A stretch of DNA of 64,000 nucleotides from Acidobacteriota bacterium. GTDB taxonomy: Bacteria > Acidobacteriota > UBA6911 > JACQSX01. A program made the translations under genes and the position numbers. The stretch spans positions 1 through 64,000 of the forward strand of contig DASXQR010000192.1 of the NCBI GenBank assembly GCA_036507075.1, in the 5' to 3' direction. Within the stretch, counting starts at the first letter, position 1, and every line of letters begins with the position of its first letter. Shown piece by piece: positions 11,704-56,431 of the stretch. The notes below the pieces were generated by a model. That model did not search any database and was not told the origin of the DNA. It saw only the letters and a program-made list of their open reading frames with translations.

Positions 11704-11709
11704 CAAGAG

Positions 11710-11872
11710 TTTTTGCACCACAAAGGCACGAAGTGCACAAAGTCAGACGAGGGGCAGGCAGAGTCCGGTCAAGTCTCAAAGCCAAAATGTGGCAGCGTGT
11801 CATGGAACCTGACCGGACTCTGCCTGCCCCTCGTCTCCGCTTTGTGCCCTCCGTGCCTTTGTGGTGAAAAAA
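11710..11872. repeat. Palindromic element, 27-bp-arm family, copy 1
   Basis: Perfect 27-bp inverted repeat 11745-11771 / 11810-11836 inside 9-mer ends. Confidence 0.9.
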
Positions 11873-11898
11873 TTCTATACTTAAACCCCTGGAAAACA

Positions 11899-14751: not shown

Positions 14752-15032
14752 TTGTTTTTTTGACGAGATTTCAGAAAAGACAAAAGCCGATCACGTCAAC
14801 GTCCACGTTTAAGGTCTACGTCCACGTGCACGTCAATGTCCACCAGACAAGTCCAAATGCTGCTTGAAGGAATTCAGTGCTTGAACATCTTTGTCGACAA
14901 GAGCGAGATTTGCGACTTTTTTCGTGAGCGTGGAGGTGGTCGTTGACGTCTATCGTTGACGTGCACGTGCACGTGGCCGTCCCCGGCTTTTGTTTGGTTG
15001 CAGCCTACGGCTGCGCCGTGACTTTGTGGTGC
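14752..15032. repeat. Hexamer (ACGT-core) inverted repeat element, copy 1
   Basis: CACGTC/AACGTC runs facing GACGTG/CACGTG runs, ending in TTTGGTTGCAGCCTACGGCTGC and a 9-mer end. Confidence 0.85.
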
Positions 15033-15062
15033 AAACTCATACGCGAATTTATGGGCTAATTA

Positions 15063-15731: not shown

Positions 15732-15784
15732 ATACCCAGGCTGCCTGGTAATGATCTAGTTTGTGCTGTCGGTCCAGCAAAGAC

Positions 15785-16000
15785 TTCACCACAGAGGCTT
15801 AGCGCGGCGAAGCCGCAACCAAAAGTCAAGGAGAGACGGCCTGAGGGCCGTCTCAGCTTGGTACGCCGCAGAGAGACGGCCCTCATGAGACGGCCCTCAG
15901 GCCGTCTCTCCACTCCCCAACATGTAGAAACTCCAGGAGACGGCCCTCAGGCCGTCTCCCTACCCGAATAATTTGCGCAGGCCGCGAAAATTCTTATGGT
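15785..16000. repeat. MITE/REPIN-like element with GAGACGGCC..GGCCGTCTC cores
   Basis: Shares identical 36-bp and 54-bp blocks with 33039-33194 in opposite orientation. Confidence 0.85.
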
Positions 16001-20479: not shown

Positions 20480-20830
20480 AACCGCGAAGGCCGCCAAGAA
20501 CGCCAGGATAGCGCTCTTTGCGTAGCACCTTGGCGACTTCTTGTTTTTTCGACAAGATTTCAGAAGACAAGACCGATCACGTCAACGTCGACGTTTATCG
20601 TCTACGGCCACGTACGGCCACGTGCACGTCGATGTCCACGCGCACGTCCAAATGCTGCGTGACAGATTGGAGCCTAATCATTTTGGTCAACATTGACACG
20701 ATGCGTCCCAAACTGCGATTTTTCCTTCGTGAGCATGGACGTGGTCGTAGACGTCTGTCGTTGACGTGCACGTGGCCGCGCTCGGCTTTTGGTTGCGGCC
20801 TACGGCCGGGCTGTGGCCTCTGCGGTGAAA
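20480..20830. repeat. Hexamer (ACGT-core) inverted repeat element, copy 2, with 9-mer ends
   Basis: Colinear with 14752-15032 (GATTTCAGAA..CCGATCACGTCAACGTC, GTCCAAATGCTGC, TTCGTGAGC, TTTGGTTGC). Confidence 0.85.
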
Positions 20831-22216: not shown

Positions 22217-22363
22217 TTTTTACCACCAAGGCACAAAGTCAGACGAGTGGCCGGGAGTGACCGGTCAGCTCGAGTAACACGCTCCCAAGGCCCCAGTCGT
22301 ATGGCTGACCGGACTCTCCCTGCCACTCGTCTCGCTTCATGCCTTTGTGCCTTGGTGGTAAAA
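22217..22363. repeat. Palindromic element, 27-bp-arm family, copy 2
   Basis: Arms 22241-22267 / 22306-22332 (3 mismatches) inside 9-mer ends. Confidence 0.9.
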
Positions 22364-24254: not shown

Positions 24255-24285
24255 CCTAAATTGTCACAAACGCGCGGCCCTTTCA

Positions 24286-24434
24286 AATGCGGAATGATGA
24301 ATGCGGGATGCGGAATGCGGAATGATGAATGCGGAATGATGAATGCGGAATATGTATCCATTAATTACTTTTGAGCCTGACACTAAATCACTTTTTATTC
24401 CGCATTCCGCATTCCGCATTCATCATTCCCCATT
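24286..24434. repeat. Inverted 7-mer microsatellite pair between convergent genes
   Basis: (GCGGAAT / GATGAAT)n at 24286-24351 facing (ATTCCGC)n at 24397-24434. Confidence 0.9.
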
Positions 24435-24454
24435 CGATAGAATCTTGCCGAAAG

Positions 24455-25104: not shown

Positions 25105-25300
25105 GGAGTTTCTACGTTTGCGCGGAGAGACGGCCCGAGGGCCGTCTGAGGGAATGTCCCGGGATTGCCCTGCCGGCGACCTCGCCCGAGACGGCCCGAG
25201 GGCCGTCTCAGGAATGTCCCGGGATCGCCCTGCCGGCGACTTCGCCAGAGACGGCCGTCCGGGCGTCTCTCCACTCTCCTTCGCCGTCTGGCCGTCTCTC
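25105..25300. repeat. REP array with 60-61 bp period
   Basis: GAGACGGCCCGAGGGCCGTCT at 25127 and 25188, degenerate at 25248, with near-identical linkers. Confidence 0.85.
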
Positions 25301-26336: not shown

Positions 26337-26408
26337 GTCGATTGTCGAATGTCGATTGACGATTGACGATTGAAGATTGAGAAATTGAAGATTGGCGATT
26401 GACGAAAT
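26337..26408. repeat. 7-mer microsatellite, single arm
   Basis: GATTGAC/GATTGAA/GATTGTC tandem units. Confidence 0.8.
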
Positions 26409-26440
26409 GGAGAGCCGGAGGCGGCCACGTTTTGCTCAGA

Positions 26441-26609
26441 ACGCATAGAAACGCGATACATCGACGCATAGAGACGCGATAAATCGACGCATAGAGACGC
26501 GATAAATCGCGTCTGAGTTGGGCGCGATAAATCGCGCCCAGCGCCGCTTTGCGGCGCTCTGGACGCGACATGTCGCGTCCAACTCAGACGCGGCATGCCG
26601 CGTCTCTAC
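26441..26609. repeat. REP cluster: 23-bp unit x3 followed by stacked palindromes
   Basis: ACGCATAGAGACGCGATAAATCG at 26441, 26464, 26487; GGACGCGACATGTCGCGTCC; AGACGCGGCATGCCGCGTCTCTAC. Confidence 0.85.
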
Positions 26610-32931: not shown

Positions 32932-33038
32932 TCAATCACCTCGTGATGAGCCGTAACTTCGAAGACTTGATATTACAATTTAAACCCGCCGCGATCAAAG
33001 CCGGTTTTGCGGATCCCTCTGTGTCCTTTGCACTACTA

Positions 33039-33194
33039 ACCATAAGAATTTTCGCGGCCTGCGCAAATTATTCGCGAGCGGAGAGACGGCCTGAGGGCCG
33101 TCTCAGCTTGGCAGGGCACCGCAGAGAGACGGCCCTCAGGCCGTCTCTCCTTGACTTTTGGTTGCGGCTTCGCCGCGCTCTGTCTCTGTGGTGA
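33039..33194. repeat. MITE/REPIN-like element, inverted relative of 15785-16000
   Basis: ACCATAAGAATTTTCGCGGCCTGCGCAAATTATTCG, paired GAGACGGCC cores, CTTTTGGTTGCGGCTTCGCCGCGC. Confidence 0.85.
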
Positions 33195-33285
33195 CTCTAA
33201 CATTTGACCACAGAGACACAGAGGACACAGGGGGGCAAGTAAGCACCGTTCGCTGTATACTGCGATACGCAGAGGTCGAATAGCG

Positions 33286-34120: not shown

Positions 34121-35686
34121 CTAATTCGGCTTTCTCCATTCCATTACGGCTCCCGCCTTGCGCAGCCGTGCTGTCAATTCGACTGTGTCAACGTCCTGTA
34201 CCGGTTTTCTGGCGCTGATAGCCATTTTTGCCGCGACTCCCGCTGCCTGCCCGATGATCATGTATTGCGGTTCCATCCGCAGCGTCGAATAGGCCACGTG
34301 CGAGGCTGAAAACGCCACCGGCACCAGAAGATTTCCGGCCTCTTCTTTCTTCGGCAGCAGTATCCGGTATGGAACCTGATAAGGCGTGACGGGGACCTGC
34401 ATGTCGCCTTCGTTTTCAACCGCTCCGTCCGAAGTGGCGACGCGTTGAATGTTATGCGAGTCGCTGTTGTAGGATCCCATCCCGATGACGTCCGGTTTTG
34501 TGAGATCCGTCTGGATATCTTTTTGCGACATCACGAAGGCTCCGACCATGCGCCGGGACTCCCGCACGTACAACTGGTAAGGCCAATTCTGATTGTCGGC
34601 GAATTCATCTTTGGCCAAGCCGATTTCGCGCACTTTCTGCTGCAGGTCGGCGGGAACATGAGAATCATTGGCGAGAAAATAAAAGAACCCGGCGACGTAA
34701 TCGCGATGGGCCTTCCAGATCTGCTGGCGCTGCTGGTAGCCGGCGTCCGGGTAATTCCAGTTTCCGCCGATGTAATCGGTGGAAAACGCGCCATTGTTGT
34801 TTACGTCGAACTTCCCGTTCTTCAGCGGGTCGGGCTTCATCACGTCGGACAACTTCCATTGCCTCGGCGACATTGCCTGAAGCAGCCGCGCCAGTAACTC
34901 GTACCGATGCGGATCGTAATTGTCGGGCCGGGGAAACGGGACCCGGTTTTCTTTCACGTTGGTAACGCACATCCGAAAGTTGTAAGCCTGCACTTTTCGA
35001 TCGGCCGCGCAAGGTTCGCCCTTGGGACCGGCGAAAACCTCCGGGAGCAACCGGCCGTTTGCGTTGTAAGGAGAGACCTTGACCAGGAACTGATGTTTTG
35101 GCGTGTGATCGCGCACGCCCGCGAGTGACTCCCCGTACTGGCTGCACCCTTCGCGTCCCCAGGTGTAGGAAACGCCGCTCTGCGCCATCAGGTCACCTTC
35201 ATAGCTGGCGTCGGCATAGATTAAGGCTTCAAAGGCATCGCCGTTTTCAGTGACGATCCTGCGAATCTGACGCCCTTCTTTAAGCACGCCCTTCATCTCT
35301 TTGAGACGATGCTGCAGAAACACCTCGACACCGGCCTCGCGGGCCATCTCACTAAACACCTGCTCGGCGACATGCGGCTCGAAGTACCAGGTAATCGGCT
35401 CGCTGTAGTGCTTCCCCACTCGTTGGAAGAACTGAAGCGAGTATCCTCCGATCACCTCCTTCTTTCCATGATCTGTCCAGCTCAGCCCGCCGCTGACCAT
35501 GCCGCCAAGGTGCCGGCCGGGTTCAAGCAGCGCTACGCGCAAACCTTCCCTGGCCGCCGAGTACGCAGTGATTACGCCGCCGGCCGTTCCCCCATAAACC
35601 ACCACATCGAACTTTCGTGTGGCCGCCGAGGCGGATGTGAAAAGGAAGTAAAAGAACAAGAGTGTCGTCGGGAACCTCTTAAGCAT
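34121..35686 (-). CDS. FAD-dependent oxidoreductase, secreted
   Basis: DVVVYGGTAGG, DASYEGDL, YVRESRRM, SASHVAYSTLRMEP; start ATG 35686 with GAGGAG RBS. Confidence 0.9.
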   Translation of the reverse strand: MLKRFPTTLLFFYFLFTSASAATRKFDVVVYGGTAGGVITAYSAAREGLRVALLEPGRHLGGMVSGGLSWTDHGKKEVIGGYSLQFFQRVGKHYSEPITWYFEPHVAEQVFSEMAREAGVEVFLQHRLKEMKGVLKEGRQIRRIVTENGDAFEALIYADASYEGDLMAQSGVSYTWGREGCSQYGESLAGVRDHTPKHQFLVKVSPYNANGRLLPEVFAGPKGEPCAADRKVQAYNFRMCVTNVKENRVPFPRPDNYDPHRYELLARLLQAMSPRQWKLSDVMKPDPLKNGKFDVNNNGAFSTDYIGGNWNYPDAGYQQRQQIWKAHRDYVAGFFYFLANDSHVPADLQQKVREIGLAKDEFADNQNWPYQLYVRESRRMVGAFVMSQKDIQTDLTKPDVIGMGSYNSDSHNIQRVATSDGAVENEGDMQVPVTPYQVPYRILLPKKEEAGNLLVPVAFSASHVAYSTLRMEPQYMIIGQAAGVAAKMAISARKPVQDVDTVELTARLRKAGAVMEWRKPN

Positions 35687-35726: not shown

Positions 35727-36102
35727 TTTTCGCCACAAAGACGCAGCCGGCCACAGGCCGCAACCAAAAGCGTCATTGGTCATTGGTCGTCGGTCATTAG
35801 TCATTTTCACTACCAGCCGAACCGCGCCCGTCAGCAAGCGGACTCTCCAGTTTGCCACGAAGACACGAAGACACGAAGAAGCGCTATTCATTTGAAGTGA
35901 CACTTCTCATAACTCGAACCGCTTGTCTGAGAAGCGGCACTTCCAGCTCAATCGTTGTTTTGCGTGTCTTCGTGCCTTCGTGGCAAATCCCAGCGGAGGG
36001 TCCGCTTGCTGATGCGCGCGGTTCGGCTGGTAGTGAAATGACTAATGACCAATGACGCCTTTGGTTGCGCCCTGCGGCCGGGTTGTGTCTTTGTGGTCAA
36101 AA
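35727..36102. repeat. Five-layer nested palindromic element
   Basis: 9-mer end / GGTTGC hairpin / 7-mer / 43-bp arm / 9-mer, mirrored on both sides of an about 85 nt core. Confidence 0.92.
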
Positions 36103-36116
36103 TGTTCGCCGAGTCG

Positions 36117-39100
36117 CTAAAACATTAGCCGCATTCCCAGTTGGATCCGCCGGGCGGGCAGAGAGCTCAGAACTTTTCCAAAATTTGCGTTCGTATTCAC
36201 TCCCGCGGCATTCGGTTGAAACGTCACGCTCGGATCGTTCAGATTTACCCGGTTAAACGCGTTGAATGCTTCGCCCCGAATCTCGAGTTTGACTTCTTCC
36301 CGCACGGGAACAGTCTTGAACAGAGACAACGACAAGTCTTTGTATCCGGGTCCGCGCGTGTGAGGAAGCGTACGCGGCACGTTCCCGATTACAAAGTCCG
36401 GGGGATTGCGGAACGCGTCGGTGTTAAACCAGCGCGCCGCATTGCGCTGATCAGACGGCAGGCTTGGTTCGCCCACCAGGTCGGGCCAGCCGATCCCAGT
36501 GAAGTTGTTGGCGCCGCGAATTGCGAGCGGGCTGCCGTTCTGCAGAGTCAGGATGCCGTTCAATTGCCACTCCCCGACAATGGCGGCAATCCAGCCACCC
36601 TGGCCCATCCAGCGCCTTCCTTTTCCCACCGGCAAATCATAAACCGTGCTCAATACCATGCGCCTGGATACATCGCTGACGTCAATGGCGCGGTCCAGCC
36701 GCCGGTTCAAACGCCCGATGCGGAATTCCCCTCCTGTTCCGCTGCCGTCGTTGCTCGAGAAAGAGTCGTCGATCAGTTTGGATCCGGTAAAGGAGAGCAG
36801 CGCCGACAAACCGCCTGAGAAGCGGCGTTCCACCGTCATTTGGAAAGAATGATACGTGCTGCAAGCTCCGTGCTCGCCCAGCGTATTGATGGTGAGATAG
36901 TCAGGAAAGGGGCGAAGCAACTGGTCCTGGCGCACGTTGACGGTGGATAGGGTTCCGGAAGTAATTTGCCCAAAGAAGGGATTCGGCACCTGTTTTTGCA
37001 AATCCAGACCGAGAGCATAGTACTTGGGATCAAGTTGGTTGAGATTATAGTTGGCGCCAAACAGGTGCACTCCGCGGTTTCCCGCATAGGTCGTTGCGAC
37101 CACCCAGTTTCCGGCAAGCTCCCGCTGGATAGTGAGGTTCCACTGCTGCACGTAAGGAGTGCCTGATCGCATCGCTTGGAACCGCACATCCTGCCCGCGA
37201 AAGGCCGAAGGCCCCCCGGTTGCCCCTTTCGGCTGCAACAACACGCTCGGACCCTGACTGAATTGAAACGCCTTGACGGGCGCGCCGCCGGGTGCAGCGA
37301 AAGTATTATTGATGCTGAAGCCAAGAGAGTTTGAATTGTCACCTGCCGTGTCGCCGCTCTCCAGCAGGCTGTAGATCAACCCATAACCACCGCGAATCGC
37401 CGTCTTGCCGTCTCCGGTCAAGTCATAAGCAAAGCCAAAACGGGGTCCAAAGTTGTTTCGCGCAGGGCGTGTAAAATGCCGGTCCTTGGTGACGCCCGCG
37501 TACTGCAGAACGCCCGGCCGGCCGGTTTCGGAATTGACAATGAAAGGATCGAAGTTGGAGCTGCGGTTCCAGCGTTCCACCGGGCCCGATTCCAGATCGT
37601 AGCGCAGCCCGAGATTCAGCGTGAGACGCCGCGTCAGCTTGAAATCGTCCTGGACATAAGTCCCGTTGGACCAGTTATCGAAAGAAAAAAACGGCCTCAC
37701 CGACTGGCTGCCACTTGACACCTCGCCCAGTAGAAACGTGGCCATCCCGAAACCGGTCCCGGCCGGCCTCTGCGGATTACTGGTCAGTCCTCCATCGAAA
37801 GTGAAGTTGCCGGAAGGATTGAGCCGGTTGACGAAGTTCAGTCTTTGCCATCGTTGGTCCGTTCCCATTTTGATGACATGCCTGCCGGTGATGACCGTCA
37901 GGCTGTCGGCAACTTGTATAACGTGCTGCCGCCTGTGCCCGCCGGCAAATCCACCGCGTGCTGAGCCAATGGAGAGCATTCCCGAAATGCCCACCGGGGG
38001 AAACGCGTCCTGGGGAAATATGGAAGGGAATCCTAGTTTCTTCGGCCACTCTTTATCGAAGCTGGGATGCGTGAAGATCAGATACTGGCGCGTTCCGTTC
38101 AGCCGCAGCTCGTTGATCACTCGAGGAGAAAATGTATGCGTCTCCGCTACGATCAGATTGTGATTGTTACGTTGGTCGTCTCGTGCGTCCGTGTCGGCAT
38201 CCTCCGTCGGCAGTCCCCAGGCGCGAAACAAGCGTGTATTTTTGGTCCCCGTATAGCGACCAAACAGCGCGTCCTTTTCAGTAACCTTATGGTCGATGCG
38301 TGTGGTGAGTTGGAATTGATCGATGGGAAATCCCTGCAGCGAGAGGTAATTATTGGAGTTGCTGAACGGATTGTTGGGCGCCACGTTCGGCAGCGGCATG
38401 TATTTGAGAACGCTGAGCGATAATTTATCAAAGCGCCCGGAGGGAACAATATTTCCGGGAAATGGATCGCGCACGAAACCGCTGCCATTGGGGTTGGGCT
38501 TGGTAGTGGCCGGGTCGTAAATGACTATCAGGGCGCCCTGACCGTCGCGGGTCTTGGAAAAATCGCCCGCGCGCTCCGCCTCGGTCGGCACGGTAGCGCG
38601 ATTGATGTTGGCGGTGCGGAAATTCCACTGTTCGGCTCCAACAAAGAAGAACGTGCGGTCTTTGCCATGATACAGCCCCGGGATCCAGACCGGTCCGCCG
38701 GCAGTGCCGCCATATTGGTTGTATCGAAGAACCGGTTTTGTGCGGCCCGTGACAGGGTCCCGCGTCGTCACAAACGCATTGCGGGCGTCCAGCGAGTCGT
38801 TGCGCAGAAATTCATAGAGTGAACCGTGAAATTGATTCGTGCCGCCGCGCGTCACGACGTTGATAACACCGCCACTGGTTTGTCCGAATTCGGCGGGCAG
38901 GGCGTTGGTGTGAACCTTGAATTCTTCGACCGAGTCGACCATCGGCACCACGCTGATCTCATTGTGCACCGGAATCGTGTTGGTCCCCCCGTCCAGGTAA
39001 ACCTGATTGCTGTAGACCGGGCCCCCGTTGAAGCTGATCTGCGAAAACCCCTGGTTATCCACCTCGGCGAAACCATCACGGTCTTTGAGCCGGGGCTGGA

Positions 39101-39590
39101 CGCCCGGAACCAGCTTTACCAGGTTGAAGACGTGACGTCCATTCAAAGGCAGACTCTCGATTCGCTGCCGCTCCACTGTGGTTCCCAGACTGGAATCTTC
39201 CGTCTGCACCCGCGACACGCCACCTGTTACGATGGTGGTTGTGCTGACCTCGCCGATCTGCATTTCGATATTGACGCGGAGCCGCTGGCCTACTTCAAGC
39301 ACGATTCCACTCTGACGGAAAGTTTTAAAGCCAGGCAGGCTGGCGCTCACTTCGTACTTTCCGATGGGCAAAGTCGGGATTGCATAAACTCCGTCTTCGG
39401 AAGTCACGGCAGTGAATTTCTGGTTTGTCTCCAGATGCAGCCCGGTTACTTCCACTCCTGGAATGCGGGCTTTCTGGGCATCGGTGACTGTGCCCGTAAT
39501 GGTCCCTTTGGGTGATTGACCCGCCAGATGCGCGGCGCCCGCGAAGATGATGAACATGACAAAGCAGATTTTTCGCATCTGCAGAAACAT
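36117..39590 (-). CDS. Oar-like TonB-dependent receptor
   Basis: GTVTD, LPLNGR, PAEFG, NNFGPRFGFAY, C-terminal RIQLGMRLMF; GGAGG RBS before ATG 39590. Confidence 0.93.
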   Translation of the reverse strand: MFLQMRKICFVMFIIFAGAAHLAGQSPKGTITGTVTDAQKARIPGVEVTGLHLETNQKFTAVTSEDGVYAIPTLPIGKYEVSASLPGFKTFRQSGIVLEVGQRLRVNIEMQIGEVSTTTIVTGGVSRVQTEDSSLGTTVERQRIESLPLNGRHVFNLVKLVPGVQPRLKDRDGFAEVDNQGFSQISFNGGPVYSNQVYLDGGTNTIPVHNEISVVPMVDSVEEFKVHTNALPAEFGQTSGGVINVVTRGGTNQFHGSLYEFLRNDSLDARNAFVTTRDPVTGRTKPVLRYNQYGGTAGGPVWIPGLYHGKDRTFFFVGAEQWNFRTANINRATVPTEAERAGDFSKTRDGQGALIVIYDPATTKPNPNGSGFVRDPFPGNIVPSGRFDKLSLSVLKYMPLPNVAPNNPFSNSNNYLSLQGFPIDQFQLTTRIDHKVTEKDALFGRYTGTKNTRLFRAWGLPTEDADTDARDDQRNNHNLIVAETHTFSPRVINELRLNGTRQYLIFTHPSFDKEWPKKLGFPSIFPQDAFPPVGISGMLSIGSARGGFAGGHRRQHVIQVADSLTVITGRHVIKMGTDQRWQRLNFVNRLNPSGNFTFDGGLTSNPQRPAGTGFGMATFLLGEVSSGSQSVRPFFSFDNWSNGTYVQDDFKLTRRLTLNLGLRYDLESGPVERWNRSSNFDPFIVNSETGRPGVLQYAGVTKDRHFTRPARNNFGPRFGFAYDLTGDGKTAIRGGYGLIYSLLESGDTAGDNSNSLGFSINNTFAAPGGAPVKAFQFSQGPSVLLQPKGATGGPSAFRGQDVRFQAMRSGTPYVQQWNLTIQRELAGNWVVATTYAGNRGVHLFGANYNLNQLDPKYYALGLDLQKQVPNPFFGQITSGTLSTVNVRQDQLLRPFPDYLTINTLGEHGACSTYHSFQMTVERRFSGGLSALLSFTGSKLIDDSFSSNDGSGTGGEFRIGRLNRRLDRAIDVSDVSRRMVLSTVYDLPVGKGRRWMGQGGWIAAIVGEWQLNGILTLQNGSPLAIRGANNFTGIGWPDLVGEPSLPSDQRNAARWFNTDAFRNPPDFVIGNVPRTLPHTRGPGYKDLSLSLFKTVPVREEVKLEIRGEAFNAFNRVNLNDPSVTFQPNAAGVNTNANFGKVLSSLPARRIQLGMRLMF

Positions 39591-39647: not shown

Positions 39648-39941
39648 CAACACGAACGCGTCAACGGCCACGTCTAATGCCAACGAGCACGATCACGACA
39701 ACCTCCACGCCCTACTTGAAAGAATCGGACACCGATAGCGGCTTTGCCGCATGGTTTTGTCCCATCACCTGGTTGTGGCCTTACGGCCACTGTAAGCTCG
39801 TGAACGTGAGACGTCGTCGTTGACTTGAACGGCCTTGAAGAACTTTGCCAAAAAAGCAAGATTCTTTAACTGATGACCAATGACTAATGACCGATGACGC
39901 GTTTGGTTGCGGCCCTGCCGGGCTGTGCCTCTGTGGTGAAG
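39648..39941. repeat. Composite element: hexamer arms, 7-mer arm, GGTTGC hairpin and 9-mer end
   Basis: Hexamer runs 39648-39710 and 39797-39830; TGACCAATGACTAATGACCGATGAC; TTTGGTTGCGGCC..CTCTGTGGTGAA. Confidence 0.8.
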
Positions 39942-56227: not shown

Positions 56228-56247
56228 GTGAGATCTCCTGGCAAAAG

Positions 56248-56412
56248 CTTTTCACCACAAAGGCACAAAGGCACAAAGGCACAAAGTAAGACGTGAGGCG
56301 GGCGGAGACTGGTCAGCTGTTCGGCCGTGAAGTAACAGGCGATTAAAGCTGACCGGTCTCCGCCCGCCTCACGTCTTCCCTTTGTGTCCTTCGTATCTTT
56401 GTGGTGAAAAGC
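56248..56412. repeat. Palindromic element, 27-bp-arm family, copy 3
   Basis: Arms 56289-56315 / 56350-56376 (1 mismatch) inside 9-mer ends. Confidence 0.9.
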
Positions 56413-56431
56413 TTTTACTCGAACACACGAG

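Follow-up and report, generated by a model that had tools for sequence, protein, structure and literature searches.

A six-layer palindrome and a motif common to repeat-cassette and predicted competence genes in an Acidobacteriota genome

Three types of small cassette gene in this acidobacterial family (RAYT, GxxExxY and four-helix-bundle genes) mostly stand behind the same promoter-like motif as genes for DNA uptake, a link that seems to be confined to this family and is what is new here. The repeats that go with such cassettes come together in a 376-base palindrome at positions 35727-36102 of the window (the whole 64,000-nucleotide stretch that was analysed), a patchwork of six inverted repeat pairs that, judged from its sequence, is a REP/REPIN-type mosaic. 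Our preferred account, held with some reserve but thought somewhat more probable than its negation, is that gene-less hairpin elements were put together in about three steps to form a mosaic, with its symmetry due to copying between arms and the cutting done by cassette enzymes made during competence. The palindrome is less important in itself than as an extreme case of a genome-wide process. The source genome, called G000 below, comprises 6.1 Mb in 233 contigs.

Architecture and setting of the palindrome

Sequence reading and arm alignment placed all five nested pairs of the first-pass annotation where it had put them, with two amendments: layer 5, described there as a pair of 9-mers, has a period of 8, and the core of about 85 nt contains a sixth inverted pair (35894-35908 / 35929-35943, 13/15 complementary, z = -2.9). 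The layers carry the letters A (layer 1), B (2), C (3), D (4), E (5) and F (6). The palindrome, its neighbouring genes and two related features of the window are as follows.

20522..20830, minus strand: complete B...H mini-element (see below) within a layer-1 arm, with 6-mer arrays as its cargo
34121..35686, minus strand: FAD-dependent-oxidoreductase-like ORF, weak N-terminal matches only, start at 35686 set by alignment with the ortholog L016
35727..35741, plus strand: layer 1 (A), left arm, outer half of an 8/9-mer arm of GxxExxY-cassette type, truncated where layer 2 starts
35742..35768, plus strand: layer 2 (B), left arm, left terminus of the directional mini-element B...H, a small hairpin with a 3-nt loop
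35770..35805, plus strand: layer 3 (C), left arm, 7-mer array of 4.9 units, four-helix-bundle-cassette arm type, carried here as cargo by the B element
35805..35848, plus strand: layer 4 (D), left arm, REP-like hairpin near the class-3 TnpA-REP consensus
35851..35879, plus strand: layer 5 (E), left arm, 8-mer array, GxxExxY-cassette arm type
35880..35962, plus strand: multi-copy core with 28 copies in the genome, containing layer 6 (F)
35963..35987, minus strand: layer 5, right arm
35995..36038, minus strand: layer 4, right arm
36038..36059, minus strand: layer 3, right arm, 2.9 units
36060..36087, minus strand: layer 2, right copy, a further left terminus of the B element in mirror image
36088..36102, minus strand: layer 1, right arm
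36117..39578, minus strand: large receptor-like ORF on the same strand as the oxidoreductase-like ORF, weak TonB-receptor matches
39845..39941, minus strand: the "half copy" of the first-pass annotation, layers 1-3 with part of H, the right end of the mini-element, behind them, a regular member of its family

A longer form of the oxidoreductase-like ORF, with its start at 35776, would begin within the 7-mer array. The predicted fold of the palindrome has an energy of -153 kcal/mol, compared with -67 +/- 4 for 100 dinucleotide shuffles (z = -21, 0/100 as good), and the two layer-3 arrays do have unequal numbers of units, as first described. The inner layers are less diverged than the outer ones, the differences between left and right arm falling inward from about 7 in 46 columns for layers 1 and 2 together to 3 in 44 for layer 4 and 1 in 25 for layer 5, with none in layer 3 except a 14-nt (two-unit) indel and end gaps. 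At the ends of the palindrome no target-site duplication, which a MITE would have in addition to terminal inverted repeats of a known transposase, was evident by eye, and the motif scan found no competence-type motif inside the element.

The palindrome is flanked by genes on the same strand, with a start codon 41 nt away, a position that would suit a selected RNA element acting in processing, stability or termination between co-oriented genes, with the repeats as its raw material; roles of REP and BIME sequences in mRNA fate are described in PMC3184786. Against such an element stand the different inside found in the ortholog, the Rfam scan of the window (0 matches) and the distant syntenic locus L003, which has only a short hairpin at that place, and we regard selection for an RNA function as very improbable.

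In runs X1 and X2, of which one may derive from the source sample, contigs agree with 34040/34451-35881/35879 and 35963-39814/38191 at 0-1 differences, which ties each arm of the palindrome to its flanking gene. The region is covered in short pieces in runs X3 and X4, where no strain with fewer layers was seen; the joints observed in this comparison have short sides and probably come from other copies, and they were left out. The stretch 35882-35962 at the centre is bridged by none of the contigs listed, and this, together with the division of the genome into 233 contigs, is what might be expected if the assembler had stitched repeat families together. However, two runs connect layers 1-5 of both arms to their unique flanks, the left and right arms are not identical and the D-E-F unit recurs elsewhere, so an assembly artefact is hardly credible.

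Other intergenic hairpins of the window with 6- to 9-mer or REP-like arms are found at 1768-1944, 11706-11877, 14781-15036, 15783-16000, 22224-22357, 24280-24440, 25124-25279, 26339-26609, 33036-33230 and 56247-56417. The half copy of layers 1-3 that the first-pass annotation had singled out at 39870-39941 is real but not special, being itself one of 29 further arms of this kind (in 31 rows).

Repeat families and the order of the layers

Each layer belongs to a high-copy family, with 854 (A), 294 (B), 204 (E), 171 (D), 146 (C) and 92 (F) motif matches in G000, counts made without a chance control that include some chance matches for the short motifs A and B. Among 994 clusters the symmetric depth was 0 in 667, 1 in 300, 2 in 21, 3 in 5 and 6 in 1, the palindrome being the deepest nest as far as these six families, the only ones counted, are concerned. 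The 376 bp do not recur as a fixed unit, with a single six-layer nest in 994 clusters, and versions with fewer layers are common across the genome.

Layer 4 makes up 53 inverted pairs, whose cores are mostly unrelated and which lie within several different outer arrays; like REPINs, it and layer 6 consist of inverted short palindromes that form a hairpin, are extragenic and are present in high copy. The layer 6 core is found in 28 copies, among which a scripted score placed D on both sides of E-F in 13, on one side in 4 and on neither in 11. By eye, one of the 4 one-sided calls is false and one of the 11 has D on its intact side, the other side being cut by a contig end, which leaves 3 truly one-sided. 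Layers 4-6 therefore recur as one D-E-F unit in 13/28 core copies. A sibling D-E-F at the end of contig C232 has the same outer extension on its D arm as the left arm of the palindrome and no A-B-C outside. D encloses C at 2 other loci, and C encloses D only in the palindrome at 35727-36102. A phylogenetic tree of the 28 cores gave no resolution.

B lies at a fixed distance from A, at an offset of 25-27 in 95/104 neighbouring A-B pairs, and a second conserved stretch, H, follows downstream on the same strand (B is within 650 nt for 42/58 H ends). Counted by eye, the outer half of an A arm precedes B in 35 of the 42 B...H combinations, and in about 28 the A array resumes past H. What lies between B and H is variable: C arrays, 6-mer arrays, an E-F unit or RAYT-type hairpins. 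On contig C130, B-C-H occurs in both arms of an A hairpin, with an identical rare base in both B ends. In this arrangement, layer 2 is one end of a directional element at a fixed site within the layer-1 arm, with layer 3 as its cargo; given the fixed A-B offset, the H end and the resumed A array, layers 2-3 would be an arm insertion seen twice. In the palindrome, the H ends and the inner A halves are absent and D-E-F is found in their place. The B...H junction has a 4-nt ambiguity by eye, which might reflect either a duplication or a core common to both sequences. No transposase turned up in the B...H copies of G000, and neither did a gene-bearing B...H element or a driver gene for B...H or layer 6.

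The ortholog L016, on a metagenome contig, has a neighbouring gene with 92% amino-acid and 89% nucleotide identity and carries A and B at the same place, followed by a 6-mer array and another hairpin where the palindrome has C-D-E-F. It was the only one of 80 metagenome loci close enough for this comparison, and the only one examined; its contig stops 191 nt upstream of the gene, so that outer layers shared and an inside that differs, which favor older outer layers, are seen for one arm only. In 40 relatives there was no ortholog with the same flanks and repeat.

These data bear on the proposal of the first-pass annotation that five elements had been inserted successively into the centre of a hairpin, the layers forming a time series. 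Outer layers in common with an ortholog and more diverged than the inner ones are what this proposal would lead one to expect, and each family is also found alone. However, B is one end of a directional element in an arm and not an arm pair, which already contradicts the proposal for layers 2-3; D-E-F was available as a ready-made unit, with a sibling that has none of layers 1-3 around it; and the order of the layers is not fixed, given the loci where D encloses C. Five successive insertions into the centre are accordingly improbable, and a smaller number of composite events would explain the arrangement better.

The flanks of the arms provide a further indication of how nests may become symmetrical. 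Just outside the D arm, the flank is 0.52 identical to that of its own partner and 0.31 to those of others (52 pairs; 0/5000 permutations), with a smaller effect for E (0.35 vs 0.27, 71 pairs) and A (0.33 vs 0.29, 153 pairs), in a comparison in which related copies are not independent. This similarity between partners is compatible with copying from arm to arm, and it can also be inherited from a common ancestor copy. Template switching or copying between imperfect inverted repeats is described for bacteria in PMC5941160.

Cassette genes behind a competence-type motif

G000 has 12 Y1 (RAYT-type), 6 GxxExxY and 7 four-helix-bundle loci, the last from 8 matches, two of which are halves of one gene. 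In relatives, arms of A/E type surround intact GxxExxY (TIGR04256) genes at 5/8 loci tested, and in G000 a truncated GxxExxY gene lies between perfect 21-nt arms of this type. The GxxExxY protein matches Pfam PDDEXK_3 and would have a PD-(D/E)XK fold. C-type 7-mer arms stand in inverted orientation around a four-helix-bundle (TIGR02436) gene (L363; genome G003), and 7-mer arrays flank such a gene in direct orientation on G000 contig C225. Another four-helix-bundle gene, in G001, is found inside 6-mer arms inside mirrored B ends, and G003 has a cassette 90% identical to it at another site, with B on one side only. By this likeness, layers 1 and 5 can be assigned to the arm type of GxxExxY cassettes, layer 1 being of the kind that also encloses GxxExxY genes and, like layer 2, present in L016, and layer 3 to that of four-helix-bundle cassettes.

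Layer 4 has a CnGA foot and, compared by eye in its family form, 5 differences in 26 from a class-3 TnpA-REP consensus (PMC6006769 supplement 2, rows 432-433). None of the 12 Y1 matches in G000 has a D, C, B, E or F match within 700 nt. Neither a cassette gene nor a class-3 RAYT was found beside layer-4 hairpins in G000, and tblastn gave 0 matches in 121 D-bearing loci of other genomes. Since no cognate gene could be assigned to the layers of the palindrome in these searches, it is not a REPIN/RAYT system in the strict sense. Genes located between paired layer arms in G000 were also considered as drivers, and most of them turned out to be ordinary genes between chance pairs.

The layer-4 hairpin was also seen in genomes labelled Acidobacteriota, Planctomycetota, Anaerolineae, Deltaproteobacteria and Legionella (loci L116-L236), without a close partner copy at 102/121 loci. 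In G001, a complete GxxExxY cassette (L002:2340-2900) with motif and 31-nt inverted arms immediately precedes a homolog of the oxidoreductase gene; its left arm is within the first codons of this homolog, and its other neighbors are not those of the window. Some cassettes with no gene, or almost none, retain the motif between their arms (G000:C192:81690-82020, C13:40054, C82:44485 and C17:50768). In two other genomes, at G001:C383 and G003:C73, dprA is closely followed by a truncated GxxExxY match.

A two-box motif, TCGCA-N17-GTT, often located 0-7 nt before the start codon, is common to the RAYT, GxxExxY and four-helix-bundle genes. Scanning G000 with the matrix gave 61 sites, compared with 0, 0 and 1 for column-shuffled matrices, and the motif was also found upstream of comEA, comEC, comF, comM, dprA, radC, ssb, recA and a pilin gene, the names comF, comEA (TIGR01259) and pilin resting partly on matches below the curated cut-offs. 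The 20 downstream ORFs scanned included SSB, a ComEA-type HhH protein, RecA, RecQ, a pilin, RadC, a ComF-like protein, ComEC, UvrD/PcrA, RecG, DprA, an ERCC4 protein, a ComM-like ATPase and a further RAYT-like ORF; the other 6 had weak or no matches.

With a matrix built from 12 host genes alone, the motif was found before 10/12 Y1 (one of the misses being at a contig end), 5/6 GxxExxY and 6/7 four-helix-bundle genes, 21/25 in total, and with a cassette-only matrix all 12 host genes scored 19-43 bits; random windows had it in 0/400. Relatives carried the motif before GxxExxY in 7/18 (7/7 within the family), RAYT in 5/20 (all 5 within the family), dprA in 2/18 and secY in 0/18, and 13/18 four-helix-bundle genes of the family had it. 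By the two boxes alone, dprA scored in 7/18 genomes. Outside the family this matrix did not reveal the link between cassettes and motif (GxxExxY 1/11, RAYT 1/11, like the controls). Among SOS genes, recN, uvrB and uvrA2 had no site, and lexA and uvrA1 scored 9.7 and 11.0 (cut-off 12; random 4 and 2 of 300). In view of these weak lexA and uvrA sites and of the motif before recQ, recG, uvrD and other genes, it may mark a wider DNA-processing regulon. We infer that TCGCA-N17-GTT is a putative competence promoter.

At G000:C17:70860-72100 (L339 1363-2594, minus strand), a gene for an ECF-type sigma factor and a zf-HC2/TPR anti-sigma gene lie beside an HTH gene with two weak motif matches nearby, a candidate regulator only. 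Among repeats at G000:C28:575-2368, the motif precedes an ERCC4-domain gene and each of two coiled-coil ORFs that resemble one another, and more small genes of G000 follow the motif on C48, C97, C83, C57 (DUF7674) and C146 (IrrE-like).

Proposed assembly and comparison with known systems

According to our preferred account, the mosaic assembled from gene-less elements, a gene-less copy of a GxxExxY-type cassette would first have lain upstream of the oxidoreductase gene as layer 1; its arms are of that family, and the ortholog suggests that this came first. A B...H element would then have entered the layer-1 arm at its fixed site, if such elements do move, bringing the 7-mer array of layer 3 as cargo, and both arms may have been filled either through copying or because another such element entered at the mirror position. 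In the third step, the recurrent D-E-F unit would have replaced the middle, with loss of the H ends and the inner layer-1 halves. RAYT, GxxExxY and four-helix-bundle proteins would nick hairpins in single-stranded DNA during transformation, recombination led by RecA and DprA between shared arms would swap the insides, and copying from arm to arm would restore the symmetry of nests. With the cassette genes and the DNA-uptake genes under the same promoter-like motif, the elements are likely to have spread during DNA uptake.

Host recombination alone, by RecA-dependent exchange, gene conversion among hundreds of similar arms and template switching, could in principle produce such nests with the cassette genes as bystanders that happen to share a promoter. 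The genome does have hundreds of shared arms, L016 shares the outer arm and differs inside as expected from conversion, the searches revealed no driver gene for any of D, B...H and F, and switching between imperfect inverted repeats is a known process. However, the fixed offset of B in A and the A array that resumes past H look like site-specific insertion, and intact nuclease-fold and HUH genes are kept between the same kinds of arms, with a motif that is retained across the family. We therefore consider recombination by the host alone rather unlikely, if still a serious competitor of the mosaic account, in which the cassette enzymes do the cutting.

A broader version of the mosaic account is put forward tentatively, as a possibility that we would not call probable. 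Cassettes of three unrelated protein types (HUH RAYT, PD-(D/E)XK GxxExxY and four-helix bundle), wired to the competence promoter, would be parasites of natural transformation whose enzymes, produced as single-stranded DNA comes in, cut hairpins and either insert gene-less copies into one another or swap them; the palindrome would be a fossil record of this activity, and competence the long-sought setting in which RAYTs act. The shared motif would bear on two questions, the reason for which RAYTs are maintained in bacteria and the occasions on which REP-type repeats move, by naming competence as a condition and incoming single-stranded DNA as a substrate. It would also be the first functional handle on the uncharacterized GxxExxY and four-helix-bundle families, and from it a competence regulon is predicted for a soil lineage that has received little study.

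In the IS200/IS605 and IS91-type HUH elements the two ends are dissimilar, one of them has a hairpin, and the target site is fixed. B...H is like them in all three respects and differs in that no transposase was found in its G000 copies. Heptamer arrays like layer 3 are reportedly present in cyanobacteria as STRR sequences (Mazel, 1990), and very small elements inserted into repeats are said to have been described as SDR elements (Elhai, 2008).

Nesting as such is in print: REPINs are inserted into or beside REPINs (PMC3116915) and REP dimers into palindromes (PMC3733652, section 7). BIMEs and NIMEs are, in the portion of PMC3184786 covered, mosaic intergenic repeats. These BIMEs, NIMEs and REP dimers resemble the palindrome as intergenic mosaics with one family inside the palindrome of another (PMC3733652, PMC3184786); as presented in those portions, they are two-level nests or interleaved clusters, with no mirrored six-level nest and no regulatory link. 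The literature covered, mostly titles and beginnings of abstracts and exclusive of subscription journals, contained nothing that connects a competence promoter with RAYT, GxxExxY or four-helix-bundle genes and nothing on GxxExxY or four-helix-bundle cassettes as sources of repeats; no such link appeared in the parts covered of PMC3686654, PMC6006769, PMC12378983 and 10.1101/2021.01.26.428298.

Quentin et al. (2018, PMC6006769) report a class-3 TnpA-REP family from Acidobacteria and Planctomycetes. Layer 4 shares its CnGA foot, but no class-3 gene turned up beside the layer-4 hairpins examined here, which pair around varied cores of about 50-400 nt. Compared with REPINs and RAYTs as described by Bertels and Rainey (2011, PMC3116915), the palindrome has six inverted pairs and a directional element in its arm, three of the pairs have tandem-oligomer arms tied to non-HUH genes (PD-(D/E)XK fold and four-helix bundle), and the cassette genes have in common a putative competence-type motif.
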